Below, piece by piece: positions 48,855 through 64,000 of a stretch of 64,000 nt of DNA. Origin of the DNA: Actinomycetota bacterium (GTDB lineage: Bacteria; Actinomycetota; Aquicultoria; SURF-47); NCBI GenBank assembly GCA_003599235.1, contig QZJE01000007.1:16585-80584 (forward strand), read 5' to 3'. The stretch's first letter is position 1. Each line of letters opens with the position of its first letter. The notes beneath the pieces were generated by a model. That model had not been told where the DNA came from. It worked only from the letters and a program-made list of their open reading frames with translations, and ran no database searches. Both the position numbers and the translations under genes were made by a program.

Positions 48855-48893
48855 TTCTTCTCCTACTTACCACTTACTACTTACGACTTACGC
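48855..48893 (-). repeat. Purine-rich tandem-heptamer leader element (minus-strand GCGTAAGTCGTAAGTAGTAAGTGGTAAGTAGGAGAAG) between rfbA and rfbC; copy 2
   Basis: Shares CGTAAGTCGTAAGTAGTRAGTGGTRAGTAGG with the argJ/argB junction element. It lies directly between the rfbA stop and the rfbC start. Confidence 0.55.
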
Positions 48894-49955: not shown

Positions 49956-51151
49956 TTTCCGGTCACTACTATAACATCTGTATATTGGGAAGGAAAGATT
50001 GATTGGCTTTTTTTGATACGCTTTGTCCCTAACATTGCAGCTATTACTTTTGCTTTTTCTAATTTGGCATTAGTTTGATAATAAACAACCGTGCTGCCCT
50101 TATTGAGATTATCAGCATTTTCTACCCTAAGCACTTGAAAACCCATACCGGCTATTTTTGGTTTTAACTTAGTAGCTTGACCTGCAATACCGCTGCCATT
50201 TTGGATAATTACCGTTGTGTCCTCGTTATCAGTGCTAACAGGCAGTCCTTTCTCAATACATTCAAGCATATACTCAATTCTTTCTTCGTCGGGAAGAAGA
50301 TAATATCCCCGCCAAGACCAATCATCAGTTCCGGGCAGCGTAACCATTTGCACCTTGGCTTTATCCACTGCCTGCATCGCTCTGGCCAGCCCTAAGAGTT
50401 GCATTCCGGACAAATCAGTTTCTGAGTTCTCGGCAAAAATACTTACTAGGTAAGGAATCCTGGGGATGGTACTCCAGCTAGTCATTTTAGACATTAACGC
50501 TTTCATAAAATTGTGCTGTCGTTTTATTCTTCCGGGATCCCCGGTTAGTTTTTTATCCATTCTAAACCGAACATAATTTAGGGCAGTTACCCCGTCTAGC
50601 ACATGATAGCCAGCCGGAATATTCATACGATACGTTTTTGTATTGTTAACTAGCGGTTCGCCAATGTTGATAGGCAGCCCACCCATTGCATCAATTACCT
50701 TAATAAACCCCTGGAACCGGATAATAGCATAGTGGTGGATTTTCCAGCCTAGAAAATCGCTTACAGTCTTAATAGTAAGATCCGGGCCGCCATAGACCAT
50801 AGCTGCATTTATTTTGTCATGACCGTGTCCTTCAATCTCCACTTTCATATCCCTGGGGATAGATATCATTACCGCCTGATTTTTCTTAGGATTGAGGTGA
50901 ATTAATATCATGGTGTCGGTGCGAGTGTATTTTGGTTGGTCCTTGGTATCTTGGTTGATATCTTGGCCCATTAGCAGGATGTTTACGGGTTCATCACCAA
51001 TTGCTTCCTCTAATGAAACAATATTTTTCCCCCGTTGAAACTTTGATTCAATAAACTTAAGGTAAACATAGCCGCCAGTGGAAACCAAAATGGTTGCCAT
51101 CAGCATAAAAGAAAGTATTTTTTGTTTTAGAGATACTCTTGAAATATGCAT
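49952..51151 (-). CDS. LytR-CpsA-Psr (LCP) family cell-wall glycopolymer ligase
   Basis: 399 aa with an N-terminal TM anchor and an LCP domain (ILLMGQD...RTDTMILIHLNP...ISIPRD). Confidence 0.8.
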   Translation of the reverse strand: MHISRVSLKQKILSFMLMATILVSTGGYVYLKFIESKFQRGKNIVSLEEAIGDEPVNILLMGQDINQDTKDQPKYTRTDTMILIHLNPKKNQAVMISIPRDMKVEIEGHGHDKINAAMVYGGPDLTIKTVSDFLGWKIHHYAIIRFQGFIKVIDAMGGLPINIGEPLVNNTKTYRMNIPAGYHVLDGVTALNYVRFRMDKKLTGDPGRIKRQHNFMKALMSKMTSWSTIPRIPYLVSIFAENSETDLSGMQLLGLARAMQAVDKAKVQMVTLPGTDDWSWRGYYLLPDEERIEYMLECIEKGLPVSTDNEDTTVIIQNGSGIAGQATKLKPKIAGMGFQVLRVENADNLNKGSTVVYYQTNAKLEKAKVIAAMLGTKRIKKSQSIFPSQYTDVIVVTGK

Positions 51152-51245: not shown

Positions 51246-51815
51246 ATGGTTATGCAAAAAGCAATCATTAAAAGTCTAGAAGAAAGCGCTAACACAAAAA
51301 ACGCTTTAACAGAGTTTAGCGATGTAATTGAGTTAGCCGCTAAACTTGTTATCAAAACTTATCATAACAAAGGCAAGGTGCTGCTTCTGGGAAACGGTGG
51401 AAGTGCTGCCGATGCCCAGCATATTGCAGCAGAGTTCGTGGTCCGTTTTGCTAAAAGCCGTTTATCTTTACCGGCCATCGCTCTGTCATGTAACTCTTCA
51501 ATAATCACCGCCTGCAGCAATGATACTGAATTTAACGAAGTTTTCAGAAAACAGATAGAATCATTAGCCCAACACGGAGATTGCATAATCGCTATTACAA
51601 CTAGCGGGACTTCTCTAAACATAATAAACGCTGTTAAGGAAGCCAAGAAGAAGAGATGTTCGGTTATTAGCTTAATTGGTAAAAAACACTCACCTCTTTG
51701 CAGCCTTTCGGATGTTTGTATTGCTGTCCCATCTAGCAGTACGCCCCGCATCCAAGAAGCCCACATCACCATCGGCCACATCATTTGTCAACTGGTCGAA
51801 GAAACCTTGTTTTAG
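51246..51815 (+). CDS. gmhA: Phosphoheptose isomerase (sedoheptulose-7-phosphate isomerase, SIS domain)
   Basis: 189 aa with the SIS-domain motif LLLGNGGSAADAQHIAAEF. Confidence 0.8.
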   Translation: MVMQKAIIKSLEESANTKNALTEFSDVIELAAKLVIKTYHNKGKVLLLGNGGSAADAQHIAAEFVVRFAKSRLSLPAIALSCNSSIITACSNDTEFNEVFRKQIESLAQHGDCIIAITTSGTSLNIINAVKEAKKKRCSVISLIGKKHSPLCSLSDVCIAVPSSSTPRIQEAHITIGHIICQLVEETLF

Positions 51816-51822
51816 ACATCAG

Positions 51823-52422
51823 ATGTCAGACTTCAGTCGTCAGGAAACATCAAACAAACGTCATTGCGAGGAGGCCAATAGCCGACGTGGCAATCTCAGA
51901 CATAAGGCAGTCTTCCTAGACCGCGATAATACCATTATCGAAGACGAAGAAGGATATCTCTCTAATCCTAACAAAGTAAAACTGCTTCCAGGAGCAGCAG
52001 GCGCCATTAAGAAACTAAATGGAGCTGGGTTTAAGGTGATAATCGTAAGCAATCAGTCTGGTATTGGACGCGGATTAATTACAGAGGAACAACTTGGTCA
52101 AGTTAATCAAAAGATGCTCGAACTTTTAGCTGAAGAAGGTGCTAAGATAGATGCTATATACTATTGCCCTCACCATCCCGAAGCCGATATAGAGAAATAC
52201 CGAATGATATGTCCAGACAGAAAGCCAGCTCCCGGAATGCTCATTAAAGCCGCCGTAGAACATAATATCGACCTCAGTAAGAGCTATTGTGTTGGTGATA
52301 GTGAACGAGACATCCAAGCAGGCAAAAACGCCGGTTGCTCTACCTTAATGATTAGCGAGGAATTAGATCTAAAAAAAGCAGTAGAAATTATTTTGAATAA
52401 CTCTTTAGAATCTTATCGATAA
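51823..52422 (+). CDS. gmhB: D-glycero-D-manno-heptose 1,7-bisphosphate phosphatase (HAD, GmhB type)
   Basis: HAD motif I AVFLDRDNTII, then VSNQSGIGRG and CPHHPE (Zn-binding GmhB signature). The longest ORF starts at 51676 and overlaps gmhA in another frame. The ATG at 51823, just after the gmhA stop, is the likely start. Confidence 0.75.
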   Translation: MSDFSRQETSNKRHCEEANSRRGNLRHKAVFLDRDNTIIEDEEGYLSNPNKVKLLPGAAGAIKKLNGAGFKVIIVSNQSGIGRGLITEEQLGQVNQKMLELLAEEGAKIDAIYYCPHHPEADIEKYRMICPDRKPAPGMLIKAAVEHNIDLSKSYCVGDSERDIQAGKNAGCSTLMISEELDLKKAVEIILNNSLESYR

Positions 52423-53845
52423 TCTTCGAGCTTGAGTAGCCTTCGATAAAGGGCACTAAAGAGATCTCTCCGCCATAGGACTTAACTACTGAGGCTTCCG
52501 GTAAATCTTCCTCGTTATAATCGCCGCCTTTAACAAAGACATCGGGCTTAAGCAACTCAAGGATTGCTTCAGGCGTATCTTCGTCGAAGAAGGTAACGTA
52601 ATCTACAAAGTCCAATAAGGAAATTATCTCTGCTCTTTGCTCTTCGCTTATTATCGGCCGGCTATCCCCTTTTATTCTCTTGATAGAATCATCGGTATTT
52701 AGCCCCACTACAAAAACATTGCCTAGTTTAGCGGCGCTTTTTAGATAGGAGATGTGGCCTAAGTGAAGTATATCAAAGCAACCGCTGGTAAAAACAACTT
52801 TTTCGCCTTGAGCTTTTTGAGATTCCAGGATACTTATTAAATCATTAGCATCTTTTATCTTAGCATGTTCATGCTCGAACCTTCTTACGAGCTCTTTCTG
52901 GCTTACCGTAGCCGTGCCTAGCTTAGATACCTCAATAGCAGCCGCTTGGTTAGCAATAATGGAGGCCTCTTCATAACTTGCACCGGAGGCAACCGATAAG
53001 GCAATGGCCGCTACTACCGTGTCTCCGGCCCCGCTTACATCAAAAACTTCCTTAGCTTCCGTGGGATAATGCATCACTTTGCCAGTAGTATCAAACAAGG
53101 ACATTCCTTCATTTGCCCTGGTAATCAAAACACTGCACTGCATTTCTGAACACAGTTTCTGGCCCATGCCGATAATATCCTGGTCGGTGCTGCCGGCAAT
53201 ATTGGTCATTTTAGAAGCTTCCCTGTGATTGGGAGTAATCAAATCAATTCCCTTATAAAGTTCATGGTGCCTGCATTTGGTATCAGCAATTATTGTTTTA
53301 TTGATATCCTTAGCTATACTAATTAAGTTCTTTATTAGGCTAGAGGTAAGAGTGCCCTTATCATAATCAGAGAAAACCACTATATCTACATCAGTTGCCA
53401 GCATCTCAAAGCTTTTAACGATGGCTTTTTCCCGTTCTTCTTCTAATTCTTGGGTATTTTCGTAGTCAAGCCTGATAAGCTGCTGGTTATGGCTTAAAAC
53501 CCTGGTTTTGGTGATAGTAGGTTTGTGATGGTCAAAAACAATGCCAGAAAAACCGATTTTATTTTTCTCTAGAATAGATATCAGCTGCTTACCTGGCTCA
53601 TCCTGGCCTAGAGTGCCTACTAGCTCTGCTTGGCCTCCCATAGCTACTACATTGTTAGCCAGATTGGCTGCTCCGCCCGGTAGCATAGTTTCCTTATTTA
53701 CCTTAACTACCTGCACCGGAGCCTCAGGTGATATACGATCAACTTCTCCAAAGAGATACTTGTCGACCATTACATCGCCGACTATTAGTATCTTTTTCTT
53801 ATTGAAGTTCTTAATAATCCTTGTTAAAGCTTCCATTAGTAGCAT
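52388..53845 (-). CDS. hldE: Bifunctional D-beta-D-heptose 7-phosphate kinase / D-beta-D-heptose 1-phosphate adenylyltransferase
   Basis: 485 aa. The N-terminal half is ribokinase-like (PfkB) and the C-terminal ~150 aa is a cytidylyltransferase-like domain (FTSGCFDILHLGHISYLK). Its 3' end overlaps the gmhB 3' end by 35 nt. Confidence 0.85.
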   Translation of the reverse strand: MLLMEALTRIIKNFNKKKILIVGDVMVDKYLFGEVDRISPEAPVQVVKVNKETMLPGGAANLANNVVAMGGQAELVGTLGQDEPGKQLISILEKNKIGFSGIVFDHHKPTITKTRVLSHNQQLIRLDYENTQELEEEREKAIVKSFEMLATDVDIVVFSDYDKGTLTSSLIKNLISIAKDINKTIIADTKCRHHELYKGIDLITPNHREASKMTNIAGSTDQDIIGMGQKLCSEMQCSVLITRANEGMSLFDTTGKVMHYPTEAKEVFDVSGAGDTVVAAIALSVASGASYEEASIIANQAAAIEVSKLGTATVSQKELVRRFEHEHAKIKDANDLISILESQKAQGEKVVFTSGCFDILHLGHISYLKSAAKLGNVFVVGLNTDDSIKRIKGDSRPIISEEQRAEIISLLDFVDYVTFFDEDTPEAILELLKPDVFVKGGDYNEEDLPEASVVKSYGGEISLVPFIEGYSSSKIIDKILKSYSK

Positions 53846-53887
53846 TTTAACTTATTTTACTATTACCAGCTAGTCAGCTATAATCTA

Positions 53888-54697
53888 TTGCTTGGAGAAG
53901 TTATGATTGCAAAATTAATTGAAATATATAAACACCGGGAATTACTCGTAGTTTTTACAAAAAAAGAGCTAAAAGTTAAGTACAAAAACTCCGCTATGGG
54001 CGTGCTATGGTCTTTTATTAATCCCTTGATTATGGCAGTTGTCTATACACTGGTCTTTAGTAAGCTGTTTGGAGCAAGTAAAGAAATAAAAGACTACCCC
54101 ATATTTCTTTTATCGGCCTTATTGGCATGGAATTTCTTTACTGTATGTATAGCAACCTCCTCTAGCGCCATCATCGCAAACGCCAATCTTATCAAAAAAG
54201 TTCGATTCCCTAGAGAAATTATCCCTTTGTCAATTATACTAGCAGCTCTGGCAAACTATTTAATGGAAGTTGCTGTACTAATGGTTATCTTGTTAATAAT
54301 GGGTTACAATTTTATTCCATATCTTCCAATTTTTTTGTTAGTGCTCATACTGCAACTGATTGCCACTGCGGGTTTTGGTTTTATATTTTCAGCTTTAACT
54401 GTTTACTTTCGTGATATTGAGCAGTTAATTAATATTATTCTGCTCATCTGGTTTTTTGCTACTCCTATCGTATATGATATTAGCAAGGTAAATAAATTAT
54501 CGCCGATTTTTGCAACTGCTCTTAAAATTCTTAATCCTCTAGTATCTATAATGTTACTTTACAGGAGTTCGCTATATTACCTTTCATGGCCCTCATTGCA
54601 GCTAATCATTTATGGCCTTCTCGGATCTACTAGCATTTTTATTGCTGGCTATATTCTGTTTCAAAAACTTTCACCAAATTTTGCTAAAGAGGTTTAA
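53888..54697 (+). CDS. wzm: ABC-2 type polysaccharide exporter permease (second copy)
   Basis: 269 aa, 6-TM ABC-2 permease, paralogous to the gene at 45617..46459. GGAG RBS upstream. Confidence 0.75.
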   Translation: MLGEVMIAKLIEIYKHRELLVVFTKKELKVKYKNSAMGVLWSFINPLIMAVVYTLVFSKLFGASKEIKDYPIFLLSALLAWNFFTVCIATSSSAIIANANLIKKVRFPREIIPLSIILAALANYLMEVAVLMVILLIMGYNFIPYLPIFLLVLILQLIATAGFGFIFSALTVYFRDIEQLINIILLIWFFATPIVYDISKVNKLSPIFATALKILNPLVSIMLLYRSSLYYLSWPSLQLIIYGLLGSTSIFIAGYILFQKLSPNFAKEV

Positions 54698-55923
54698 TGA
54701 AAAAAAACCAATCATCAAAAATCGTCATTGAAATAAAAGACTTATGGGAAAGTTTCCGCATTTATCATCACAAAAGCATGACCTTAAAAGATACCTTCGT
54801 GCGCTTAAAAAAATCTGCATATGAGGAGTTTTGGGCCTTAAAGGGAGTGTCTTTCAAAGTATTTAAGGGTGAGACATTGGGCATCATCGGTGAGAATGGC
54901 TCTGGAAAAAGTACCCTTTTAAAGTGCATCTCAGGAATACTAGAGCCAAGCAAAGGCTGTATTAAGGTCAAGGGAAAGATTTCACCATTACTTGAACTAG
55001 GGGCCGGTTTTCATCCTGAACTTAGCGGGCGGGAAAATATCTTTATTAACGGGGCAATCCTGGGATTAACAAAAAAACAAATCCAAGAACGATATGACAA
55101 AATAGTTGCTTTTGCTGAGCTAGAAGACTTTATAGATACCCAAGTTAAGTTCTATTCATCCGGTATGTATATTAGGCTTGGTTTTGCAGTAGCAATTTTT
55201 GCTGACCCTGATATTTTAATGGTAGATGAAGTATTAGCTGTAGGTGATGAGAGTTTCAGAAAAAAATGTTTTGATAAGATTAAAGAGTTTCAAAAAATGA
55301 ATAAAACAATAATTATAGTGACTCATGATATGGGATCCGCTTATAGATTTTGTGACAGATTGGTGCTTCTTAGCAAAGGAAAGATAAATAAAGAAGGCAA
55401 ACCAAAAGAAATTGTAAGGAATTATGTAAATAGCGTTATTGAAGACGAAAAATTTAGCGAAAAGGGCTCCAAAGATATAGTGCTTACAAAGGTAGAATTA
55501 TTTGATGAAAATGAGACAAAACAAACCAACTTTTCTCCGGGTGACAACCTAGTTATTTCGATTACTTATAATGCAAAAACTGCAATCAAAAACCCAATTT
55601 TTGGTTTCGCTATATTCGACCAGCAAGGAAACCATTGTTTTGGAACCCACACTAAGTACAAGGGCCTTAATATCCCAGAAGTTAACGGTGTGGGCCTCAT
55701 ACGCTTTAAACTCGATTCATTGCCAATGTTAAACGGTAAATTTTACTTAACTGTAGCAGCTATCAACGAATCAAATGATATATATCATGAGTTAAAAAAT
55801 TGCCTATCTTTTGAAGTAACAAGCTCCAATGATGATGAGGGAACCTTATATATTCCTGTGGAGTGTGAAATTCAGTCACTTTCGAATAAATCGAATACCA
55901 AACAAGAAGTTGGAAAAAACTAA
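54697..55923 (+). CDS. wzt: Polysaccharide ABC exporter ATP-binding protein with C-terminal carbohydrate-binding domain (second copy)
   Basis: 408 aa with Walker A GENGSGKST and a ~150-aa C-terminal extension. Paralogous to the gene at 44372..45616. Confidence 0.8.
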   Translation: MKKNQSSKIVIEIKDLWESFRIYHHKSMTLKDTFVRLKKSAYEEFWALKGVSFKVFKGETLGIIGENGSGKSTLLKCISGILEPSKGCIKVKGKISPLLELGAGFHPELSGRENIFINGAILGLTKKQIQERYDKIVAFAELEDFIDTQVKFYSSGMYIRLGFAVAIFADPDILMVDEVLAVGDESFRKKCFDKIKEFQKMNKTIIIVTHDMGSAYRFCDRLVLLSKGKINKEGKPKEIVRNYVNSVIEDEKFSEKGSKDIVLTKVELFDENETKQTNFSPGDNLVISITYNAKTAIKNPIFGFAIFDQQGNHCFGTHTKYKGLNIPEVNGVGLIRFKLDSLPMLNGKFYLTVAAINESNDIYHELKNCLSFEVTSSNDDEGTLYIPVECEIQSLSNKSNTKQEVGKN

Positions 55924-57230
55924 TGAAAATTGTCTTTATTAATCCTTATATTTCAAACGATAAATCCTATCCTGATTATCCCCCTATAGGGATTCTATCA
56001 ATGTCTAGCTTGTTAAAAGAAGCTGGCTATAGCGTTTTCTTTTTAGATGCCCAATTCGAACAACTTAGTGTTGATCAGATTAGCGCTAAGATCAAAAAAA
56101 TAGTACCAGACCTAATCGGAATAACTATAAATGTTGTTCAAGCAAAATCAGCTCTAGTCTATATAAACGAATTAAAAAAAATCTTTCCCAGTATCCCGCT
56201 AGTTATAGGTGGTCCTTTTGTAACAGGTTTCGGTAAAGAAACATTTGATCATATAAAAGAAGCCGATTTTGCAGTTCAAGGCGAAGGTGAAGAAGCTATC
56301 GTTAACCTAGTAAACCATCTCGATGGAAGGTTCGCGTTGGAAGATATTGATAATCTGATATACAAAAATAATGGCCAAATAATTACTAATCCCTTAAAGC
56401 GAATCTTTGATATTAATGCCCTGCCTTTGCCTGATTATGATTTGATCAAAGACCATATAAATCTATATACCCCTCCTCATCCTTCAATTGCCCAACCATC
56501 TATGCATATAATGTGCTCAAGAGGTTGCCCGTTTAAATGCCAATTCTGCTCCTCTCCTACCATATGGGGCAGAAAAGTAATATATAGAAACGTAGAATCA
56601 GTAATAGAAGAAGTTGATTTATTAATTAGCAAATTCGGCGTCAAAGAGATATTTTTTCAAGACGACACCCTAAATGCCCGTAAAAAGTGGTTTTTTGAGC
56701 TTTGCCATCAGCTTATTGAAACCAAGCTAAATGAGAAAGCTTATTTTAAATGTCCTTTTAGAGTTAATAAAAAAATCTTAAGCAGAGAACTTTTACAAAT
56801 AGCAAAAAAAGCGAACTTTTGGATGATTTTTTATGGAGTCGAGAATGGCAACCAGGCAATGCTTCAAAGTATGAACAAAGGAATAAAGATCAGAGATATT
56901 AAACGTGCTTTTGATTTAAGTAAGCAAGTCGGCATTAAAACTTTCGCTTCTTTTATGGTGGGCAACATAGGAGAAACAGAAGAAACATATAGAGATTCTA
57001 TCAATTTAATGAAAGAAATTAAATCTGATTATGGAGGTTTCGCTTTCGCAATTCCTTTTCCGGGTAGCGAATTATATAATGTTGCATTATCAAAGCGTCA
57101 TATAGAGATCAATGATTTTGTCTCTGAATTTACAACTGATAGATGCATAGTTCGAACTGATAAGCTAGATAGTAAAAGAATCCAAGAGTTAACAATGCAA
57201 GCAAACCAGTTAATGGTAGATAAAAATTAA
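55923..57230 (+). CDS. Cobalamin(B12)-binding radical SAM protein (class B radical SAM; probable C-methyltransferase or related sugar-modifying enzyme)
   Basis: 435 aa with an N-terminal B12-binding Rossmann-like domain, then the radical SAM CxxxCxxC motif (CSRGCPFKCQFC). Confidence 0.8.
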   Translation: MKIVFINPYISNDKSYPDYPPIGILSMSSLLKEAGYSVFFLDAQFEQLSVDQISAKIKKIVPDLIGITINVVQAKSALVYINELKKIFPSIPLVIGGPFVTGFGKETFDHIKEADFAVQGEGEEAIVNLVNHLDGRFALEDIDNLIYKNNGQIITNPLKRIFDINALPLPDYDLIKDHINLYTPPHPSIAQPSMHIMCSRGCPFKCQFCSSPTIWGRKVIYRNVESVIEEVDLLISKFGVKEIFFQDDTLNARKKWFFELCHQLIETKLNEKAYFKCPFRVNKKILSRELLQIAKKANFWMIFYGVENGNQAMLQSMNKGIKIRDIKRAFDLSKQVGIKTFASFMVGNIGETEETYRDSINLMKEIKSDYGGFAFAIPFPGSELYNVALSKRHIEINDFVSEFTTDRCIVRTDKLDSKRIQELTMQANQLMVDKN

Positions 57231-57241
57231 ATCACTTAAAA

Positions 57242-58411
57242 ATGATAGTTTATTATGAGGATAAACAAAATGATATAGAGCAAATCGCCGATGATCTTTT
57301 TTTAGTCTCTGATAAATCCTTCGAGAGATTACAAAACATTTACTCCACTTTTATGCGATTAGACTACCCATCAGCTTACATTTTGGATGGTAGTAAACAT
57401 CCAAAAAATATTCTAAAAAGATTACTGAGAAAACTTTCACATTGGTACATAAAGAGATTGGAAGATTTTGGAAGACAACATTTATCTATTGAAAAAAAAT
57501 TATTCACTAATTTGTTTGATGAAATTAATCAAATCAGGCAGCAAAGCCAAAGGAGTGAACAATTAGCAAATGCTAATGGAGAATTTTTAAAGCAATTTAA
57601 TAAAGGAATGTACATCGAAAGAATAAACAGAATTGAGAGATCCTTAAAAGATAAACACAGCAATAACTTCCCAACAAAACAACAGAGAAAAAACAAAGAA
57701 TTACCAGAAGAATTAAAAGTAGCTAATAGTATGGATTATTATATGTTTGAGAATAATTTCAGAGGATCCGAAGAAGTTATTAAAAATCGTCAGAATCAAT
57801 ATCTTAAATATTTTGTTAATAAAAGTAACGTTTTAGATATCGGTTGCGGACGAGGCGAATTTTTAGAACTCCTAACTAATCATAACGTTGAATGCTATGG
57901 AATAGATATTAATCCTGACATGGTATTAAAAGGCAGAGAAAAAGATCTAAAAATTATTCAAGAAGAAGCCCTAAGTCATTTACTTTCAGTAGAAGATGAA
58001 TCCCTGGGTGGCATTTTTTGCTCACAACTTATTGAACATCTAAGCCCCTCAGCGATTTCTAATCTTATCGAACTCAGTTGGAATAAACTAAAAAAGGATT
58101 CCTATTTTATCTGCGAGACAATAAATCCTTGTTGTGTAAGCGCTTTCATTAATTCCTTTATTATGGATCTCTCCCACGTAAAACCACTTCATCCAGCAAC
58201 CCTGAATTTCTTATTTGAGAGCAATCACTTCGAAGAAGTAAAAGTTACTTTTCTAACACCGCATGAGGAATCAGCAAAACTAAGCAAAATAAGCGTTCAA
58301 GGCCTCGACGAACAACATCTAAGAATTTCTGAATTACTAAACAGCAACACGGAAAAACTTAATCAATTGTTATTTGGCTATCAAGAGTATGCAGTAATCG
58401 CAAAAAAGTAG
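57242..58411 (+). CDS. Class I SAM-dependent methyltransferase with ~170-aa N-terminal extension
   Basis: 389 aa with methyltransferase motif I VLDIGCGRGEF in the C-terminal half. The N-terminal region is helical and charged. Confidence 0.7.
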   Translation: MIVYYEDKQNDIEQIADDLFLVSDKSFERLQNIYSTFMRLDYPSAYILDGSKHPKNILKRLLRKLSHWYIKRLEDFGRQHLSIEKKLFTNLFDEINQIRQQSQRSEQLANANGEFLKQFNKGMYIERINRIERSLKDKHSNNFPTKQQRKNKELPEELKVANSMDYYMFENNFRGSEEVIKNRQNQYLKYFVNKSNVLDIGCGRGEFLELLTNHNVECYGIDINPDMVLKGREKDLKIIQEEALSHLLSVEDESLGGIFCSQLIEHLSPSAISNLIELSWNKLKKDSYFICETINPCCVSAFINSFIMDLSHVKPLHPATLNFLFESNHFEEVKVTFLTPHEESAKLSKISVQGLDEQHLRISELLNSNTEKLNQLLFGYQEYAVIAKK

Positions 58412-58423
58412 TAAGGAAGTTAT

Positions 58424-60274
58424 GTGAAGGTACCTAAAAGTATAACTATAATAATGTTAACCTGGAATGGGCTTAAAAAAACTTACGAATGCTTAGAAAG
58501 CCTGGAGCCATCTATTATTATGGCAAAAAATTGCAAACTAATCGTTGTAGATAATGGCAGCACAGATGGAACTGTAGAGTTTTTAGAAAGTAAGCCCTAT
58601 GTAGAATTAATTAAAAATTCTTCTAATGTTGGATTTACAAAAGCAAACAATCAAGGAATTAAAAGAAGCGAGCCTGATTCCGATATCATTTTAATAAACA
58701 ATGATTTAATTTTCTTGGATAAGGATTGGATTAATAAACTTCAAGACCTAGCATATAAGGATAATAAAAATGGGATAGTCGGTTGCCGGCTAATAAGTTC
58801 TAATAATAAATTAATTCATTCAGGAACTTACATGCCCATAGAAACCCTGTGGGGACACCAAATTGGAAGCGGAGAAAAGAATATAAATCAGTATAACCAG
58901 TCCAAACCAGTACAAGGAGTCGTTTTTGCAGTAAGTTATATTAAACGAGCAGTTATTAACCAAGTTGGCCTTTTAGATGAAGATTATTTTGCTTACTTCG
59001 AGGATACCGATTATTGTTTTAAAGCAAAAAAGGCTGGTTTTAATACTTTAGTTCACGGAGACGTAACTGTCATTCACAATGAGAACTCATCAATAAAAGT
59101 TAACAACGTAAATTTCAGAAAGCTTTTCTTTCGCTCTAGAAAAACTTTCAAAAAGAAATGGGGTAGACATTTATATCAAGACCACAAAAACCCAATCACT
59201 TGGCGTTCTATATTAGGTTTTTCAACTGGTTACGCTGCATCTTCTGGAGAAATACTAAAAAATCTCTATCAGCGTAATACAGATGTCTCTTACAAATACG
59301 CTTACGGAAGAGGCACTCCTTTCCCATATAGGGAGCCTAGACATCTGGATGATCACATGTTAAACCTTATAGCAAAACGAAAATCGAACAGAAATGCACC
59401 ACAAGTAGTTTATGCTCAAGGCGATGTTTTTAATAAAAATAATGGCCCTTATAAAATTGGCTACTCGATGCTAGAAGTTAACGGGATACCAAGAACTTGG
59501 GTTAATCAAGCTAACAACATGGATGAAGTATGGGTCCCTTCAAATTTCAACAAACAAACATTTAGAAAAAGTGGGGTTGAAAAAGATATTCACATAATCC
59601 CCTTGGGAGTGAACCCTAACTACTTCAATCCATATATAACTACCTTTAATCGCTCCAATAAGTACACGTTCCTTTCAGTTTTCGAATGGGGAGAGAGAAA
59701 GGCCCCAGAAATATTATTAAAAGCCTTTACCGAAGAATTCAGCAAAAAAGAAAACGTTTTACTTCTATTAAAGGTAATTAATAATGATGGGTCTGTTAAT
59801 GTAAAAAAGCAAATTAGAGACATGAAACTAAACGAGAATAGCGCTCAGATAATACTTATGCTGAACCAAAAGATTCCTTATTACCAGCTGGGCTGCCTCT
59901 ACAGGATGGCTGATAGCTTTGTTCTACCAACTAGGGGTGAGGGCTGGGGAATGCCTATACTAGAAGCCATGGCTTGCGGATTGCCCACTATGGCAACCAA
60001 TTGGAGTGCTCATCTTGACTTTTTTAATAACAAAGTAGGTTATCCAATTAAGGTTAGTGAATTAATATCAGCAAAAGCGAAATGCCCTTATTATGATGGA
60101 TTTAAATGGGCAGAACCAGATATTAATGATCTAAAAGCTAAAATGCGTTACGTCTTTGAAAACAAAGAAGAGGCTAAAAAAATTGGTTTGAAAGCTTCTA
60201 GTGAAGCACTTAATAACTGGACCTGGGATAATACCGGTAGCAGAATTATTGAAAGATTAAAGGCTATTTCTTAA
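58424..60274 (+). CDS. Bifunctional glycosyltransferase, N-terminal GT2 and C-terminal GT4 (second copy of this architecture)
   Basis: 616 aa. GT2 region ITIIMLTWNG...VVDNGSTDGT, and a GT4 EX7E-type region PTRGEGWGMPILEAMACGLPTMA near the C-terminus. Confidence 0.75.
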   Translation: MKVPKSITIIMLTWNGLKKTYECLESLEPSIIMAKNCKLIVVDNGSTDGTVEFLESKPYVELIKNSSNVGFTKANNQGIKRSEPDSDIILINNDLIFLDKDWINKLQDLAYKDNKNGIVGCRLISSNNKLIHSGTYMPIETLWGHQIGSGEKNINQYNQSKPVQGVVFAVSYIKRAVINQVGLLDEDYFAYFEDTDYCFKAKKAGFNTLVHGDVTVIHNENSSIKVNNVNFRKLFFRSRKTFKKKWGRHLYQDHKNPITWRSILGFSTGYAASSGEILKNLYQRNTDVSYKYAYGRGTPFPYREPRHLDDHMLNLIAKRKSNRNAPQVVYAQGDVFNKNNGPYKIGYSMLEVNGIPRTWVNQANNMDEVWVPSNFNKQTFRKSGVEKDIHIIPLGVNPNYFNPYITTFNRSNKYTFLSVFEWGERKAPEILLKAFTEEFSKKENVLLLLKVINNDGSVNVKKQIRDMKLNENSAQIILMLNQKIPYYQLGCLYRMADSFVLPTRGEGWGMPILEAMACGLPTMATNWSAHLDFFNNKVGYPIKVSELISAKAKCPYYDGFKWAEPDINDLKAKMRYVFENKEEAKKIGLKASSEALNNWTWDNTGSRIIERLKAIS

Positions 60275-61232
60275 AGAAACCGGCTAATTTTTTTTGCTTG
60301 GGTTTTACAGCTGCTAGATATATATTATCCCCCCTGTTCTCTACTGTTTGGTCTAGACTAGTAAGTAATTCAAGTAGATATTTTTTTGTGTAAGGTAATT
60401 TATTTATACCGTTGTAGGCAACAGAATGCATATCTACTAAGTCATAATCAAAGCGATCGCGAGTTTCTAGCTTTTCTATTTCATAACCATACTTTGTTGC
60501 GAGTGTTCTTATTTCTTCCAATGTATACTCTCGGTTATGCCTCCCATGAACAACCTTATGAAACTTATCGAATATATTTTGGCCGATGAGCATTGAGCCA
60601 AGATTCGATAATCTAACAGCATTCGGTAACGTCAATATCAATCGCCCTCCCGGTTTTAATATTTTATAAACCTGATTAAAAACTTCAAAGGGGCTTAAAA
60701 CTAAATGTTCTAATACCTCACAACACAAGACCATGTCGAAACTATTTTGCTTGTATGGATAAGGGTTAGTTCTTTCTAAATTAAAAATATTAGAATTAAA
60801 TTTAATTGTTTCATCAAAATAATCATTTGTCATTTCCTGAGTAAGGCTACTAATTTTGGTTTCATAAATATTCTCATCAAAAAAATTAGCAAATTCTAGT
60901 TTGTGATCAAATAATTTCATCAATAAAATGGAGAAGAGATACGGGTTTGCCCCTAATTCCAAAATTCTATTTCTGCCGTTTAATGGTATGAAATCCATTG
61001 TGTGAAAAAATCTCGGCAGAGCATCATTGACATATTCTTCAGTATACGAAATATCCATCCCTGTTAACCTATAACCTTTTAAATAACGAGATACCTCAGG
61101 AGCACTTTTCCATAACATGCTTGTAAAATTCGTTCTATCAGCGTTTTGAGCAGCTCTCTTTAAAACTTTGATCTTTGCGTCAATCTCTTCTTGTTCTCTT
61201 TGCTTTTTTTTAAGCATTATCATTCCTATCAA
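60264..61232 (-). CDS. Class I SAM-dependent methyltransferase
   Basis: 322 aa (ILELGANPY motif I-like; VLCCEVLEHL; KILKPGGRLILTLPN). Its 3' end overlaps the GT2-GT4 gene 3' end by 11 nt. Confidence 0.65.
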   Translation of the reverse strand: MIGMIMLKKKQREQEEIDAKIKVLKRAAQNADRTNFTSMLWKSAPEVSRYLKGYRLTGMDISYTEEYVNDALPRFFHTMDFIPLNGRNRILELGANPYLFSILLMKLFDHKLEFANFFDENIYETKISSLTQEMTNDYFDETIKFNSNIFNLERTNPYPYKQNSFDMVLCCEVLEHLVLSPFEVFNQVYKILKPGGRLILTLPNAVRLSNLGSMLIGQNIFDKFHKVVHGRHNREYTLEEIRTLATKYGYEIEKLETRDRFDYDLVDMHSVAYNGINKLPYTKKYLLELLTSLDQTVENRGDNIYLAAVKPKQKKLAGFFKK

Positions 61233-61247
61233 GTATTTAAAGATTGT

Positions 61248-63050
61248 TTAGTTTTTTAATTTGCTTACCAATAGATAACCCTTGTTTTGCCAGAGAACCT
61301 TACCAGTTCTCCTGAAATATTGTAGATATTTCTTTGCTACCATATCTTTTCTTATTAAAAAAATAAATGATTTTTTTTCAAGTCTTAACTGTCTAGTTGA
61401 ATCAGCTACCGTTACTTTTCTAAAATCAGTTAGCATATAAAAAACCCAGCTCAACTTGGGTTCATCTTCTTGTAAAACAAATAAGCTGCTATTTGTTGGG
61501 ATAACCTTTGCAATATGTGATAACTCAATAATATTTTTATCCGGAGTAAATAGTTTGTCCTCTTCTAGAAGATATTTATTGGATAAAAACAGAGAGTATG
61601 AAGCTGCTATACTTAAGAAAATCAATATTCCAGCTGCAAGCGTAATTATCCTGGTGTTCTTTTTGTAGTAGAAATAGTGTAGGGCTCCAGCTAATCCAGC
61701 ACTAAATAAATATACGCTCAGAGCAATATGCTTATAGTAGCCATATGGAAAAGTAAGGCTAAAAATATAATAAGCCAAACCGATATAAAGTATGAATCCT
61801 GTTAATAAGATATAGCCTTTCGAGTAAATTAAAAAACCTACGATAAATAATATTGCTATCGAAAAAGATAGCCAAATTATTGCATTTTGAACTGGACTAT
61901 AGTTAGACGCTGTCATTCCGTGAGTATGAACACCAATACCTAAAGCCTCTGTTTGCGGTGTAAAATACCTGATATCACCAGCAATGGCTCTTGCTTGTGG
62001 CGTGTTAAACTCACCAATAGATTTTTTATACTTCACAAATTCGGCTACTCTTATTATTGAAGGAAAAGATGTTACGCCAATAACCAGAAAAACAATAAAC
62101 AATGTCATCAAAATTTCCCTGTAAGCACTCTTTCTTTCTCTAATAAGTTTAATGGCAATCCAAATCAGAGGAATACTAACAGCATAAAGGATCGATTCCG
62201 GATATATTGTTAATAAAGAAGCTACTATAATTGCAAAGCAGATGGCTGCTTTTATTGAGTAATCTTTAAGTAGAAATAGTCCAAAAATAATACCTAAAGA
62301 AACAAAAGGTAAAGCCATCAAATGAGAAATAAAGCCATTATAATTCCCATGAACTATTAAAACGTTGAGGCCAAAAAATAAGGCTGCCAGTGTAGATACG
62401 CGCGAACTAAAATTAAGTGCTATCGAGCTAAAAGCATATACTCCTGCAATAGCAAGCATATAAAAGAAAAGAGAGGTTGCCTGAAATGTCTTAAGAGAGT
62501 TCGAATTAAGAATACCGTTTAGCCCTGCCAAAAAAAACATTGGCCCTAGTCTTACTTTGCCAACTAATGCATTATTTAACAAAAAATAATTTGGTCTAGT
62601 GTTGACAAAGGGTACCTTGCTAGCTGAGTTATGATATGTCAAGTAGTCGCCTAAAGTAGAGGCAGTATGGGCATCAATACAATTTCCATATACACTTACA
62701 TACCCAGCCTTAATCATGGGAAGCAAAGCGATTAATAAAAGAACTATTGCAAGTAAATAAACACAACAATGTTTAACGCGAGGAAAATCATCCTCTTTTA
62801 TAATTAATAATATAAATGAAATAAAAGCAAAAATTGAATAAGGTATGATTAATCTTCCAGGAGTTATCCCAAAAAAATCAGCAAATTGAAAGACTATCGA
62901 TATCGTGGCTAATCCAAATATCGGAGAAAGTAGATAGAAATATTTCCTCAGTCTCTCAGGCAAAAAGAAATAGCTTATTAGAAAACCTGTAGGCAAAACA
63001 ATAAAAAAAGCACTTGCTATAACTTTTAATTCAAAAAATAGTACCTGCAT
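61248..63050 (-). CDS. Polytopic membrane protein, putative GT-C-fold glycosyltransferase partner of the GtrA/GtrB pair
   Basis: 600 aa with about 14 predicted TM helices and no soluble catalytic domain. It sits immediately downstream of the GtrA-like and GtrB-like genes. Confidence 0.5.
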   Translation of the reverse strand: MQVLFFELKVIASAFFIVLPTGFLISYFFLPERLRKYFYLLSPIFGLATISIVFQFADFFGITPGRLIIPYSIFAFISFILLIIKEDDFPRVKHCCVYLLAIVLLLIALLPMIKAGYVSVYGNCIDAHTASTLGDYLTYHNSASKVPFVNTRPNYFLLNNALVGKVRLGPMFFLAGLNGILNSNSLKTFQATSLFFYMLAIAGVYAFSSIALNFSSRVSTLAALFFGLNVLIVHGNYNGFISHLMALPFVSLGIIFGLFLLKDYSIKAAICFAIIVASLLTIYPESILYAVSIPLIWIAIKLIRERKSAYREILMTLFIVFLVIGVTSFPSIIRVAEFVKYKKSIGEFNTPQARAIAGDIRYFTPQTEALGIGVHTHGMTASNYSPVQNAIIWLSFSIAILFIVGFLIYSKGYILLTGFILYIGLAYYIFSLTFPYGYYKHIALSVYLFSAGLAGALHYFYYKKNTRIITLAAGILIFLSIAASYSLFLSNKYLLEEDKLFTPDKNIIELSHIAKVIPTNSSLFVLQEDEPKLSWVFYMLTDFRKVTVADSTRQLRLEKKSFIFLIRKDMVAKKYLQYFRRTGKVLWQNKGYLLVSKLKN

Positions 63051-63052
63051 AA

Positions 63053-63466
63053 TTATATATTAAGATTTTCTGGAGCGCTAAAGCTAAAATGCTTATGACC
63101 CGTGTAGCTAATGCAAACAGTAATAAGCACTATACCAGCTTGAGCAATAATGGGACTTAGTTTTAAAATTTCAACTGCAAACGGCAAAGTAACTGCATTA
63201 ATTGCGAAGGCCATTCCGTATACAACATAGAATTTAAGATATTCTTTTAGATAGTTTCCCTTAGTTTTGAACACAAAAATCTTGTAGCAAATATAGGCGT
63301 TTGTGATACCAATAATATAATTTACGACTAGGATTACTATATAATGAACAACCTTATGAAATGCAAAGTAAAAAAAACTGAAAACAGCAAAGCTGAAAAT
63401 AGTATTCCAGCCCCCAACAAAAAGATATTTGATTTTCTGCTCGTGATTTTTTATTAATTTCTTCAT
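63053..63466 (-). CDS. GtrA-family small membrane protein (polyprenol-phosphate-sugar flippase-like)
   Basis: 137 aa, four TM helices, GtrA-like N-terminal motif (YLFVGGWNTIFSFAVF). Overlaps the upstream GT2 gene. Confidence 0.6.
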   Translation of the reverse strand: MKKLIKNHEQKIKYLFVGGWNTIFSFAVFSFFYFAFHKVVHYIVILVVNYIIGITNAYICYKIFVFKTKGNYLKEYLKFYVVYGMAFAINAVTLPFAVEILKLSPIIAQAGIVLITVCISYTGHKHFSFSAPENLNI

Positions 63467-64000
63467 AAACCAACTGTTTTTTTGACAATGTAATTGGGAC
63501 GCTGTTTTACTTCTTCATATATGAGTCCAATATATTCGCTAACGATACCAAGCATTACAAAAAGGAAACCAAATAAGAGAAGAACAATCGTCATCAGGGT
63601 TCCATATCCAGGGAAAGGTACCCCGTAAAGTATGAATTGGATAACAATGAATATCAGGACTATAAAAGCCAAAATGGACAGGCTAATTCCAAAAAAGGTA
63701 ATCAATCTAAGAGGCAAAAGCGAATAAGCCAGCATTCCTTTGATTGCCAATTCCAACACCTTTAAAGTATGAGCCTTGGATTCACCGGCAAATCTAGGCG
63801 TACGCTCGAACTCAACTCCCGCTGATTTAAACCCCACCCAGTAAAACATCCCTCTTAGGAAACGATTACGTTCCTTCATTGCGTTAATAGTTTGATACAC
63901 TTTCTTATCTACCAGTCGGAAATCGCTTACATTTTTGGGAAAGGAGCCAGCTGTCATTTTATTTATCAGCCAGTAGAATATTTGGGAGTTCATCTTTCTT
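63463..64000 (-). CDS. Polyprenol-phosphate glycosyltransferase (GT2, GtrB/DPM-synthase-like), C-terminal part; N-terminus beyond the window end
   Basis: The C-terminal portion has the typical GtrB ending (conserved region FRLVDKKV, RFLRGM, then two C-terminal TM helices). The ORF is still open at position 64000. Confidence 0.6.
   Translation of the reverse strand, partial: RKMNSQIFYWLINKMTAGSFPKNVSDFRLVDKKVYQTINAMKERNRFLRGMFYWVGFKSAGVEFERTPRFAGESKAHTLKVLELAIKGMLAYSLLPLRLITFFGISLSILAFIVLIFIVIQFILYGVPFPGYGTLMTIVLLLFGFLFVMLGIVSEYIGLIYEEVKQRPNYIVKKTVGL

Follow-up and report, generated by a model that had tools for sequence, protein, structure and literature searches.

In Escherichia coli O8/O9a and Klebsiella pneumoniae O3/O5/O7, assembly is ABC-transporter dependent: multi-domain glycosyltransferases act as polymerases, Wzt carries a C-terminal carbohydrate-binding domain, the terminators (WbdD, ORF6-O7) join a methyltransferase to a long coiled coil, and a second enzyme, a kinase, is paired with or fused to the methyltransferase (PMC11231755, PMC3482155). 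Wherever a system with a Wzt binding domain has been characterised, export is restricted to terminated chains, and a coiled-coil 'ruler' protein contains the terminator (PMC11231755); recognition of the cap by the binding domain has been demonstrated (PMC9445017). In the methyl-capped rhamnan/mannan systems, represented by Aquifex aeolicus WzmWzt and the common polysaccharide antigen locus of Pseudomonas syringae/aeruginosa, wzm, wzt, a bifunctional glycosyltransferase and an O-methyltransferase lie in one operon beside rhamnose genes (PMC7820976), and the Wzt binding domain reads the methylated terminal sugar (PMC9445017).

The stretch of DNA analysed here (the window, 64,000 nt) comes from a metagenome-assembled genome of a probably anaerobic member of the Actinomycetota and carries two glycan export modules. 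The first wzm/wzt module (38-51 kb, minus strand), already recognised in an earlier note on this DNA, was confirmed and has exactly the layout of the methyl-capped rhamnan/mannan systems. The second, the subject of this study, shares the architecture of the O8/O9a-type systems but contains no kinase, a cobalamin-type (class B) radical SAM enzyme (rSAM) occupying its place; compared with the methyl-capped systems it adds the rSAM, a diverged Wzt binding domain and a lower GC content. All six genes that the earlier note had named in this segment were recovered with identical boundaries (Table 1). Five of them (wzm, wzt, rSAM, methyltransferase and GT2-GT4 fusion) form a single tightly packed plus-strand operon (53888-60274), with TAATG start/stop overlaps at the wzm/wzt and wzt/rSAM junctions (cTAATGaaa at the latter) and gaps of 11-12 nt after the rSAM gene. 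This segment is a genuine cell-surface sugar-polymer assembly and export operon. Taken as a whole, it was read with moderate confidence as encoding a methyl-capped, ABC-transporter-dependent wall glycan to whose cap a radical step, probably C-methylation, contributes.

Table 1. Features of the glycan segment and its neighbours (nucleotide positions in the window)
Feature	Position	Strand	Evidence or remark
LCP glycopolymer-to-peptidoglycan ligase	49952-51151		
gmhA-like isomerase	51246-51815	+	Best match GmhA, just under equivalog cut-off
gmhB-like phosphatase	domain ~51901-52422	+	Best match GmhB, just under equivalog cut-off
hldE	52388-53845	-	HldE domain models 374.6 (>345) and 195.8 (>181.5)
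Promoter-like site TTTACT-17-TATAAT	53856-53884	+	In 42-nt divergent gap between hldE and wzm
wzm, ABC-2 type permease of glycan exporter	53888-54697	+	ABC2_membrane 75 bits (cut-off 26.9)
wzt, exporter ATPase subunit	54697-55923	+	ABC_tran 78 bits; Wzt_C 101 bits (cut-off 30.4)
Wzt C-terminal carbohydrate-binding domain	~55459-55845	+	Residues ~255-383
Class B radical SAM enzyme (rSAM), 435 aa	55923-57230	+	B12-binding and Radical_SAM domains
rSAM B12-binding Rossmann domain	55962-56309	+	Residues 14-129
rSAM cluster CxxxCxxC	56526-56549	+	C202-x3-C206-x2-C209
Class I SAM methyltransferase, candidate chain terminator	57242-58411	+	Catalytic domain residues ~163-389 (57728-58408)
Predicted helix of the methyltransferase	57410-57661	+	Residues 57-140
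Bifunctional glycosyltransferase, candidate polymerase	58424-60274	+	GT2 residues ~1-240; GT4 ~310-610
Second class I methyltransferase, last gene of minus-strand operon	60264-61232	-	Methyltransf_23/11
600-aa polytopic membrane protein	61248-63050	-	~12 TM segments (TM scan)
GtrA-family small membrane protein, lipid-linked sugar translocation	63053-63466	-	PF04138, 61 bits
GtrB/ArnC/PgfS-like polyprenyl-phosphate GT2, C-terminal part	63463-63993	-	Gene cut by window end

The exporter was confirmed by domain matches well above the Pfam cut-offs, and six TM segments were predicted in Wzm, which is 38% identical to its counterpart in the first module. A GGAG sequence at 53894-53897 makes the ATG at 53903 the more likely start of wzm. 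The promoter-like site upstream scored highest in the region (10 of 12); as such sites were no more numerous in total than expected by chance (43 against 42.3), it was taken as a hint only. The earlier note had found Wzt but overlooked its carbohydrate-binding domain. Between the two modules the ATPase domains are 56.8% identical and the binding domains 32.9%, a divergence that fits two different caps in the window.

The methyltransferase that follows the rSAM does possess the long N-terminal extension previously described for it (~160 residues), although its coiled-coil-like character had been missed: a single helix of 84 residues was predicted (modelled pLDDT 50-74). Members of its family share a conserved N-terminal motif, a variable coil and the methyltransferase domain, with spacers of 52-285 aa in homologues; many are named 'O-antigen chain-terminating methyltransferase' by JGI. 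Members are also encoded beside Wzt genes with a binding domain where no rSAM is present, a neighbourhood typical of chain terminators. The closest structure was 3DLI. No relationship to WbdD was detectable by sequence or structure comparison, and the coil lies N-terminal to the catalytic domain rather than C-terminal as in WbdD-type terminators. The protein is a candidate chain-terminating methyltransferase, and the combination of a Wzt binding domain with a coiled-coil-like helix speaks more for a cap that terminates the chain than for simple methylation along the whole polymer. Both halves of the glycosyltransferase were recognised (Glycos_transf_2 65 bits, Glycos_transf_1 58 bits); no initiating phosphoglycosyltransferase was found in the window.

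The convergent methyltransferase had previously been assigned to the same module. The gene is present, and its end overlaps that of the plus-strand operon by 11 nt, but it belongs to a separate minus-strand operon, which is a GtrA/GtrB-like/12-TM extracytoplasmic decoration system. This operon matches the general three-component scheme of GtrA/GtrB/GtrC, CsbB/GtcA/YfhO and Pgf (PMC11127046) in having a GtrB/PgfS-like GT2, a GtrA protein and a large polytopic membrane protein. Over their C-terminal halves, the NCBIfam profiles PgfS and ArnC-like matched the GT2 at 123 and 62 bits, respectively, and relatives at 57-70% identity (64-70% for the best of those listed) are common in metagenomes. It differs from the known systems in also containing a soluble methyltransferase and in its membrane protein, which matched nothing in Pfam or NCBIfam, falls outside the described families and is very rare, with only 86 relatives at E<=1e-3 among 1.84 billion representatives and just three at E<=1e-30. 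A sub-threshold PMT_2 match was seen in one relative and DUF6541 in another; the protein is presumed to be a GT-C-like extracytoplasmic glycosyltransferase. The soluble methyltransferase is weakly similar (31% over 88 aa) to the methyltransferase domain of an rSAM fusion protein, P0073. Between the two modules, the gmhA-like, gmhB-like and hldE genes (51246-53845), of host-like GC, probably provide an ADP-heptose pathway, judging by their profile matches. Where the O8/O9a-type hosts have an LPS pathway, this host has an LCP ligase, and since that ligase is encoded nearby the host is probably single-membraned.

Genomic context ties the rSAM family to glycans. Relatives of 40-53% identity occurred almost exclusively in glycan loci. 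Among the 21 loci of relatives scoring at least 330 bits (six from Peptococcaceae and five from methanogens, hence not independent phylogenetically), wzm and wzt lay within 5 kb of the rSAM gene in 10, as against none of 63 distant class B rSAMs (Fisher p=1.3e-7), and ABC and/or related glycosyltransferase genes were present in 19; the family is therefore considered glycan-dedicated. The 20th (L009/L170) is a Wzx-type polysaccharide locus and the 21st a 3.5-kb contig carrying a wzt fragment. In ABC-type loci the usual position of the rSAM gene is immediately 3' of wzt, as seen in seven loci from Geobacterales, a Deltaproteobacteria MAG, Phycisphaerales, an unassigned ENA metagenome contig, Methanoregula and Methanoperedens.

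It was also possible that the rSAM tailors internal sugars of the polymer, for example each residue added by the GT4, and that the methyltransferase alone forms the cap. In six Peptococcaceae/Thermacetogeniaceae loci the rSAM gene is flanked by GT4 genes, and neither an ABC transporter nor a methyltransferase is encoded nearby (within 10 kb in Peptococcaceae). Two relatives, one of them at the P0073 locus, are paired with a short Wzt that has no binding domain, and chain-end capping is not expected in the Wzx-flippase locus; these contexts weaken a role confined to the cap. Furthermore, homologues of the GT4 half of the window's glycosyltransferase (173-376 bits) adjoin rSAM genes in Peptococcaceae/Thermacetogeniaceae, Gemmatimonadota and Brocadiia loci, and the coiled-coil methyltransferase family also operates in wzm-wzt(Wzt_C)-methyltransferase-GT4 cassettes devoid of any rSAM. 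Within ABC-type loci, however, the rSAM is fixed between wzt and the terminator methyltransferase and not beside glycosyltransferases, and it has repeatedly been fused to a methyltransferase (P0073 and L027, both at least 298 bits; more remotely L035/L038, 215-218 bits, and L041, 184 bits), like the fused cap enzymes of WbdD (PMC11231755). A 2660-aa Geobacter protein is a GT2-GT4-GT4-rSAM-rSAM fusion. Tailoring of internal residues was accordingly kept as a tentative alternative, the strongest of those considered, to an rSAM contribution to the cap.

The earlier note's assignment of the rSAM to class B was borne out by the B12-binding (70.7 bits, cut-off 32.1) and Radical_SAM (73.6 bits, cut-off 29.5) domains. 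The radical SAM core spans residues 198-362 and opens with the motif CSRGCPFKCQFC (residues 198-209), whose three cysteines (C202, C206 and C209) did not vary across 29 homologues; a ~140-aa C-terminal domain present in about half of its relatives is missing. No curated NCBIfam cut-off was reached. BchE was the best named profile, yet at 184 bits (cut-off 481) it was rejected, as were HpnR (87, cut-off 650), QCMT (TIGR04014; 140, cut-off 360) and AprD4 (NF033070; 77, cut-off 500). A placement in BchE or HpnR, which the earlier note had set against its sugar-related reading, was thus not found, and the nearest relatives lie in glycan loci. GenK, GenD1, Fms7 and MoeK5, the last from moenomycin biosynthesis, share the N-terminal cobalamin domain and radical SAM core and methylate unactivated sugar carbons in assembled glycosides, GenK, GenD1 and MoeK5 being class B enzymes for C-methylation of sugars (PMC9204698); the likeness was established at superfamily level only, and these are natural-product enzymes, unlike the rSAM, which presumably acts on a wall glycan polymer.

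That the rSAM is no methyltransferase at all, but performs diol dehydration/deoxygenation, epimerisation, oxidation or ring contraction while class I methyltransferases supply the methyls, was judged rather unlikely. The best-scoring profiles were mixed, comprising the non-methylases BchE, HpnJ, the ladderane enzyme and BzaD as well as the methylases PhpK and QCMT, and sugar-acting class B enzymes include non-methylases such as HpnJ, which carries out a glucosamine ring contraction (PMC9204698). The AlphaFold2 model (pLDDT 93.3) had MgmA/QCMT, AprD4, TsrM, OxsB, CysS and TokK as its top Foldseek matches. AprD4 (PDB 6FD2), the radical SAM 1,2-diol dehydratase for paromamine, an enzyme whose target is a sugar within an assembled glycoside, was second best and had the highest TM-score (0.79-0.80), so that the modelled fold is equally near this enzyme and the C-methylase MgmA/QCMT. 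However, the closest solved structure by both sequence (95 bits) and Foldseek E-value (1.8e-27, 24% identity) was MgmA/QCMT (PDB 9CCB), and in sequence comparisons the N-terminal domain matched the cobalamin domains of QCMT, CysS, OxsB and TokK. With AprD4 the N-terminal domains did not align, only the radical SAM half doing so (residues 162-420); AprD4 is not known to use cobalamin. MgmA/QCMT is, like the rSAM, a compact class B enzyme (~420-450 aa) without large extra domains (PMC12931638), although its substrate is a protein, it being the glutamine C-methyltransferase of methyl-coenzyme M reductase, unlike the glycan presumed here. Methylation is moreover the commonest reaction of the class (PMC11659888), and several single-methylation members target sugar carbons (PMC9204698). 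C-methylation therefore remained the preferred activity, and the C- and O-methylated polymer put forward in the earlier note is plausible.

The AT-richness which that note had judged by eye was confirmed by calculation, the GC profile across the window not being uniform. A GC step from 0.41 to 0.34 is located exactly at 53.9 kb; positions 53888-64000 have a GC of 0.338, compared with 0.409-0.410 in the housekeeping parts. In 1-kb windows the core averaged 0.407 (sd 0.022, n=43) and the island 0.339 (n=10; Mann-Whitney p=1.6e-6), GC3 fell from ~0.33-0.42 to 0.26-0.32, and tetranucleotide L1 distances to the core were 0.28-0.31 in the segment and 0.13-0.19 elsewhere. The right-hand boundary lies beyond the window end. 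A doubtful explanation is that these surface-glycan genes are native to the lineage and owe their composition to a local mutational bias or to selection that is relaxed or diversifying. In its favour, the left boundary showed no transposase, integrase, tRNA or flanking repeats, and a 3099-aa surface-protein ORF (19243-28542) is likewise AT-richer (0.359). Yet the step is abrupt, from 0.418 in hldE to 0.340 in wzm across the 42-nt gap, and all three codon positions share it. The first glycan module retains a host-like GC of 0.399, so AT-richness is not a general trait of glycan genes here. The nearest rSAM and methyltransferase relatives belong to other phyla and Archaea (42-55% identity), with no actinobacterial ones among the named matches listed. 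Horizontal acquisition would fit both the sharpness of the step and the lack of close relatives in actinobacteria.

A glycosylated secondary metabolite or lipid as the product, modified by the rSAM outside its sugar part, is very improbable: most characterised class B rSAMs do belong to natural-product, cofactor or lipid pathways (PMC9204698), but this one is surrounded by Wzm/Wzt with Wzt_C, polymerase-type GT2-GT4 fusions, a Gtr-like operon, an LCP ligase and nucleotide-sugar genes, and the window contains no PKS, NRPS, RiPP or terpene genes.

In the preferred scheme, a methyl-capped wall glycan, the GT2-GT4 enzyme would extend a lipid-linked chain on the cytoplasmic face, probably from rhamnose and/or heptose supplied by the neighbouring rml and gmhA/gmhB/hldE genes. 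The coiled-coil methyltransferase would terminate the chain by methylating its non-reducing end. Before export, the rSAM, presumably using cobalamin, would modify the lipid-linked glycan a second time by radical chemistry, with methylation of an unactivated sugar carbon as the likeliest reaction. This modification would form part of the terminal cap, the rSAM/methyltransferase pair paralleling the kinase and methyltransferase of WbdD. The finished cap would then be read by the Wzt binding domain, licensing export through Wzm/Wzt, after which the convergent operon (GtrB-like GT2, GtrA, 12-TM protein and second methyltransferase) may decorate the polymer outside the membrane and the LCP ligase could link it to peptidoglycan. 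The recurrence of this uncharacterised rSAM in similar operons of distant anaerobic bacteria and methane-cycling archaea points to a sugar modification that has not been described before.

The second wzm/wzt glycan module that the earlier note had read from the sequence proved to be real, the ABC2_membrane, ABC_tran and Wzt_C profiles all scoring over their cut-offs and the domain assignments of all five genes resting on Pfam scores far over the cut-offs. The open reading frame boundaries reproduced its interval, 53888-61232, exactly. The gene set stood in part, since the five plus-strand genes were found as claimed and the convergent methyltransferase was assigned to a separate minus-strand operon. 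As the wzm/wzt and wzt/radical SAM junctions are TAATG overlaps (1 base shared by wzm and wzt), and the gaps on either side of the class I methyltransferase gene measure 11 and 12 nt, the stretch 53888-60274 was taken to be a single operon. An ABC-2 permease and a Wzt_C-bearing ATPase are encoded together, giving a Wzm/Wzt exporter with a carbohydrate-binding domain. Profile searches did not reveal which sugars the GT2-GT4 enzyme uses, the rhamnosyltransferase profile reaching 67 bits against a cut-off of 200. A GGAG lies six bases ahead of the ATG at 53903, which hints that wzm may really start at this codon. Of the promoter-like sites in the region, the best (53856-53884) falls inside the 42-nt gap ahead of wzm, in scans for promoters and terminators that performed overall no better than chance, promoter-like sites being no commoner than in shuffled sequence.

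Coordinates of the second glycan module, its surroundings in the window and selected related loci
Feature	Coordinates	Strand	Content or supporting match
3099-aa ORF	19243-28542	-	between pheS and trpE
Module 1 (first wzm/wzt glycan module)	38101-51151	-	LCP ligase, rmlA/C/B/D, wzm, wzt, methyltransferase, 830-aa GT2-GT4 fusion, 940-aa YfhO-family protein
gmhA-like, gmhB-like, bifunctional hldE	51246-53845		between modules 1 and 2
wzm	53888-54697	+	ABC2_membrane 75 bits (Pfam)
wzt	54697-55923	+	ABC_tran 78 bits; Wzt_C 101 bits, cut-off 30.4 (Pfam)
Radical SAM gene	55923-57230	+	B12-binding and Radical_SAM (Pfam)
Class I methyltransferase	57242-58411	+	catalytic domain confined to residues ~163-389 (Pfam)
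GT2-GT4 glycosyltransferase	58424-60274	+	Glycos_transf_2 and Glycos_transf_1 (Pfam)
Convergent methyltransferase	60264-61232	-	last gene of minus-strand operon running past window end
600-aa membrane protein	61248-63050	-	~12 predicted TM segments; no family assignment
GtrA	63053-63466	-	GtrA family, 61 bits
GtrB/PgfS/ArnC-like GT2 fragment, 176 aa	63463-63993	-	sub-threshold PgfS/ArnC matches
Related locus L001	10001-11722		example of ~140-aa C-terminal domain
Related locus L020	3472-11451		example of ~140-aa C-terminal domain
Related locus L013	8535-9968		example of ~140-aa C-terminal domain
Related locus L016	11847-13655		example of ~140-aa C-terminal domain
Related locus L170 (= L009), Pseudomonadota MAG	1-21551		radical SAM relative in Wzx-flippase polysaccharide locus

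The third gene encodes a class B radical SAM enzyme, in agreement with the earlier note. An N-terminal B12-binding domain (residues 14-129; PF02310, 70.7 bits against a cut-off of 32.1) accompanies a radical SAM core (PF04055, 73.6 bits against 29.5), and the cluster motif C202-x3-C206-x2-C209 (CxxxCxxC) was invariant in 29 homologues. The structural model (pLDDT 93.3) matched the solved class B enzymes MgmA/QCMT, AprD4, TsrM, OxsB, CysS and TokK. By sequence, the closest solved protein was the C-methylase QCMT (95 bits); CysS and TokK, which are methylases of another class B branch, matched weakly (35 and 24 bits). Known enzymes were matched at superfamily level only, as no curated family cut-off was reached. 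The profiles for the P-methylase PhpK (165 bits against 600), QCMT (140 against 360), AprD4 (77 against 500), TsrM (51 against 500) and KedN5 (66 against 700) all remained below their thresholds, and no NCBIfam model for GenK, Fom3 or MoeK5 was present among the profile matches. HpnJ (TIGR03471, 150 against 578 bits) also stayed below its threshold, and the grouping with BchE or HpnR that the note had named as evidence against its own reading was rejected on scores: BchE (TIGR02026) scored 184 against 481 bits, with no chlorophyll genes in the genomic context, and HpnR (TIGR04367) 87 against 650.

True use of cobalamin by the radical SAM protein is favoured rather than proven by these alignments, since those to QCMT, CysS, OxsB and TokK extend into the cobalamin domain, whereas that to the dehydratase AprD4 covers the radical SAM half only. 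AprD4, a structural neighbour whose N-domain folds similarly, is not known to use cobalamin. C-methylation is marginally favoured as the reaction because the N-domain is of the cobalamin type, the closest solved protein is itself a C-methylase, methyltransferases keep the enzyme company, and class B offers precedents for sugar C-methylation in GenK, GenD1 and MoeK5 (PMC9204698). Alternatively, the protein may carry out other radical chemistry, as AprD4 or HpnJ do.

The assembly of ABC-transporter-dependent glycans with terminal caps is a well-worked model, with methyl, methyl-phosphate and Kdo as the caps known so far, and the pathway type of a capped, ABC-exported glycan is itself well known. 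According to the rule derived from Klebsiella and E. coli, terminators reside in coiled-coil ruler proteins, and transporters with a binding module export terminated chains only (PMC11231755); structural work on Aquifex has shown the binding domain to recognise a methylated cap (PMC9445017). The terminator rule is matched by the base cassette described below, with its putative coiled-coil methyltransferase. The long N-terminal extension that the earlier note had ascribed to the methyltransferase of module 2 is real, the catalytic domain (which shares 43% identity with 3DLI, an uncharacterised protein from Archaeoglobus) starting at about residue 163, and it was modelled with moderate to low confidence as one 84-residue helix (residues 57-140, pLDDT 50-74). 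Homologues share an architecture in which a conserved N-terminal motif is followed by a coiled-coil-like, often repetitive, heptad-like spacer and then by the catalytic domain; the spacer measured 52-285 aa in the 34 of 120 homologues with both flanking motifs locatable. Many homologues are named 'O-antigen chain-terminating methyltransferase' by JGI automatic annotation. No WbdD chain was recovered at E<=0.01 by sequence or in the Foldseek top 50, and the kinase domain found in O9a-type WbdD is absent from the methyltransferase by Pfam, such that the resemblance to WbdD is architectural and contextual: the protein works like WbdD, and is not a member of its family.

The methyltransferase is encoded together with a Wzt with a binding domain in the window and in the homologue loci L167, L169 and L086, and two of the three sampled homologue contexts had the order wzm-wzt(Wzt_C)-...-methyltransferase-GT4 without a radical SAM gene. 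From these latter contexts it was therefore concluded that the base cassette consists of a binding-domain transporter, a coiled-coil methyltransferase and a GT4, with the radical SAM protein an add-on in a subset.

The nearest relatives of the radical SAM protein were 40-53% identical. Aside from the window's own entry, those listed came from metagenomes and MAGs and had either no name or a generic one; the sole cultured-organism entry listed, from Methanosalsum natronophilum, was the weakest match. Genomic context was surveyed at 80 loci from species-representative genomes and at several metagenome contigs, probed with the window's proteins. From these, a counted set of 21 non-redundant loci with a radical SAM protein of at least 330 bits was compared with 63 loci carrying more distant class B radical SAM proteins. 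Both wzm and wzt lay within 5 kb of the radical SAM gene at 10 of the 21 loci and at none of the 63 (Fisher p=1.3e-7, where p-values overstate the evidence because the loci are not phylogenetically independent). The radical SAM gene directly followed wzt at seven of these ten loci, Wzt measured 400-435 aa at eight, with Wzt_C confirmed wherever Pfam data exist, and all nine evaluable ABC-type loci encoded a class I methyltransferase that was homologous to the window's or fused to the radical SAM protein. The hosts of ABC-type loci comprised Geobacterales, a Deltaproteobacteria MAG, Phycisphaerales, Methanothrix, Methanoregula and Methanoperedens. Within the three archaeal genera, loci L013, L016, L017, L030 and L086 carry wzm-wzt followed by the radical SAM and coiled-coil methyltransferase genes, and their Wzt proteins have a long Wzt_C-type C-terminus, which suggests cap-checked ABC glycan export in Archaea.

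Other contexts were also seen. Six Peptococcaceae/Thermacetogeniaceae loci showed the order GT4-rSAM-GT4-GT4-GT2 with no transporter nearby, and the Pseudomonadota locus L170 placed a relative inside a Wzx-flippase polysaccharide locus rich in methyltransferases. Two SPASM-type radical SAM genes are found there together with four class I methyltransferase genes and a fifth of the FkbM type, and the product looks like a very heavily tailored glycan. Fusions of the radical SAM protein to a methyltransferase occurred at 298 bits or above in Phycisphaerales and Planctomycetia, and among more distant proteins in Brocadiia (215-218 bits) and Desulfovibrio (184 bits); a 2660-aa Geobacter protein has the domain order GT2-GT4-GT4-rSAM-rSAM. 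In a neighbour-joining tree, ABC-type contexts were found in two of the main clades, and the window's protein clustered with the bacterial ABC-type and Peptococcaceae groups. The association did not extend below about 300 bits, where clusters with multiple radical SAM genes predominated. Across phyla and domains the pattern clearly marks the family as one of glycan tailoring.

About half of the relatives carry a C-terminal domain of ~140 aa with a DxRxLG-like motif (...W.P....D.R.LG...) that belongs to no Pfam family. It is present in three copies in the 2660-aa Geobacter protein, is joined to additional separate methyltransferases in two methanogen loci, and is missing from the window's radical SAM protein and every other ORF of the window. 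As it also occurs on the methanogen methyltransferases, the domain may be a shared targeting/recruitment or glycan-binding module. The idea that it had moved to the N-terminus of the neighbouring methyltransferase was rejected, the extension being conserved in the methyltransferase family itself.

The AT-richer composition from 53.9 kb onwards, which the earlier note had judged by eye, was borne out by calculation, and the GC profile was not uniform: the housekeeping genes (leu-type genes, arg, pheST, his and trpE), which make up the remainder of the window, had a GC content of 0.409-0.410 and module 1 of 0.399, against 0.338 for the stretch that begins at 53888 and fills the rest of the window. 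The drop, from 0.418 in hldE to 0.340 in wzm, sits in the 42-nt gap that separates these genes. It was seen at all three codon positions, with a roughly twofold tetranucleotide distance to the core and a difference in 1-kb GC windows (p=1.6e-6), and low GC persists to the window end, placing the right-hand boundary beyond it. No tRNA or transposase was found at the left-hand boundary, a repeat search of the window gave no flanking direct or inverted repeats or insertion scars, and an Rfam scan of the whole window was empty, with no cobalamin riboswitch. A foreign or fast-evolving origin is likely but unproven. The sole other compositionally deviant stretch is the 3099-aa ORF (GC 0.359, AT-richer than its housekeeping neighbours), probably a giant surface protein, which has weak Ig-like, fn3, MG2/A2M and PD40 matches.

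The layout of module 1, whose Wzt likewise carries Wzt_C, is essentially that of Pseudomonas CPA/Aquifex and matches methyl-capped rhamnan systems; its glycosyltransferase and YfhO ORFs as called overlap by 71 nt. Its LCP ligase suggests a wall-linked glycopolymer in a monoderm host. The gmhA-like, gmhB-like and hldE genes represent a probable ADP-heptose pathway; the listed start of gmhB lies about 75 codons too far upstream, and the ORF overlaps gmhA. Such a route is typical of Gram-negative LPS, and here it shares a genome with an LCP wall ligase. The radical SAM and methyltransferase proteins are identical to Actinobacteria/Actinomycetota bacterium MAG entries (RJQ33031.1, on a contig of 81,295 nt).

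In the convergent operon, the layout of GtrA, a GT2 and a polytopic protein resembles that of three-component systems adding sugars to glycans outside the membrane (PMC11127046). Relatives of the GtrB-like fragment in a metagenome scan were 57-70% identical. The 600-aa protein is presumed from its size, topology and operon position to be a GT-C fold transferase. The protein, whose gene has the locus tag C4562_01955, matched neither Pfam nor NCBIfam families. It is also very rare: a search of 1.84 billion representative proteins gave 86 relatives at E<=1e-3 and, apart from the protein itself, only two at E<=1e-30. A sub-threshold PMT_2 match was seen in one relative and DUF6541 in another.

Under the proposed mechanism, the GT2-GT4 enzyme would polymerise a lipid-linked glycan, the coiled-coil methyltransferase would cap the chain, and the radical SAM protein would make a radical-dependent modification ahead of export. 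The Wzt binding domain would then inspect the chain end before export by Wzm/Wzt, the Gtr-like operon would decorate the chain outside, and an LCP enzyme would join it to the wall. The radical product could be part of the terminal cap, as argued by the fixed position of the gene between wzt and the terminator, by the fusions to methyltransferases, and by the divergence of the binding domains of the window's two Wzt paralogues (33% identical, against 57% for the ATPase domains). However, it could also be a residue-specific internal decoration, given that some relatives occur in loci that lack a binding domain or a transporter or that use a Wzx flippase, and that the protein is recurrently paired with one GT4 subfamily. 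It is conceivable, if improbable, that the cross-domain family is a dedicated Wzm/Wzt component which, with a class I methyltransferase, makes a new Wzt-read cap, a radical-derived and probably C-methylated terminal sugar, as the counterpart, in radical chemistry, of kinase-methyltransferase terminators, at work among anaerobic bacteria as well as methanogenic and methanotrophic archaea.

Sugar clusters contain many orphan class B enzymes. No cobalamin radical SAM enzyme that recurs in Wzm/Wzt cassettes, including those of Archaea, was found in the full-text literature searched. Searches for radical SAM proteins in O-antigen/Wzt systems returned unrelated genome papers only, the Xanthomonas matches concerning other loci, and two class B reviews (PMC9204698, PMC12931638) hold no description of the enzyme in such cassettes. 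The conserved synteny and the fusions of the radical SAM protein are solid; the chemistry of its step we infer. The glycans concerned have never been analysed because all close relatives come from uncultured anaerobes, and module 2, as a compact five-gene operon, is suited to a clear experiment on the radical SAM product. If true, the presence of this enzyme in cap cassettes would mean new chemistry for cell-surface polysaccharides and would assign a function to one orphan radical SAM family among the many of class B. The occurrence of the cassette in Methanoregula, Methanothrix and Methanoperedens implies that Archaea, too, use checkpointed Wzm/Wzt export with a carbohydrate-binding domain.
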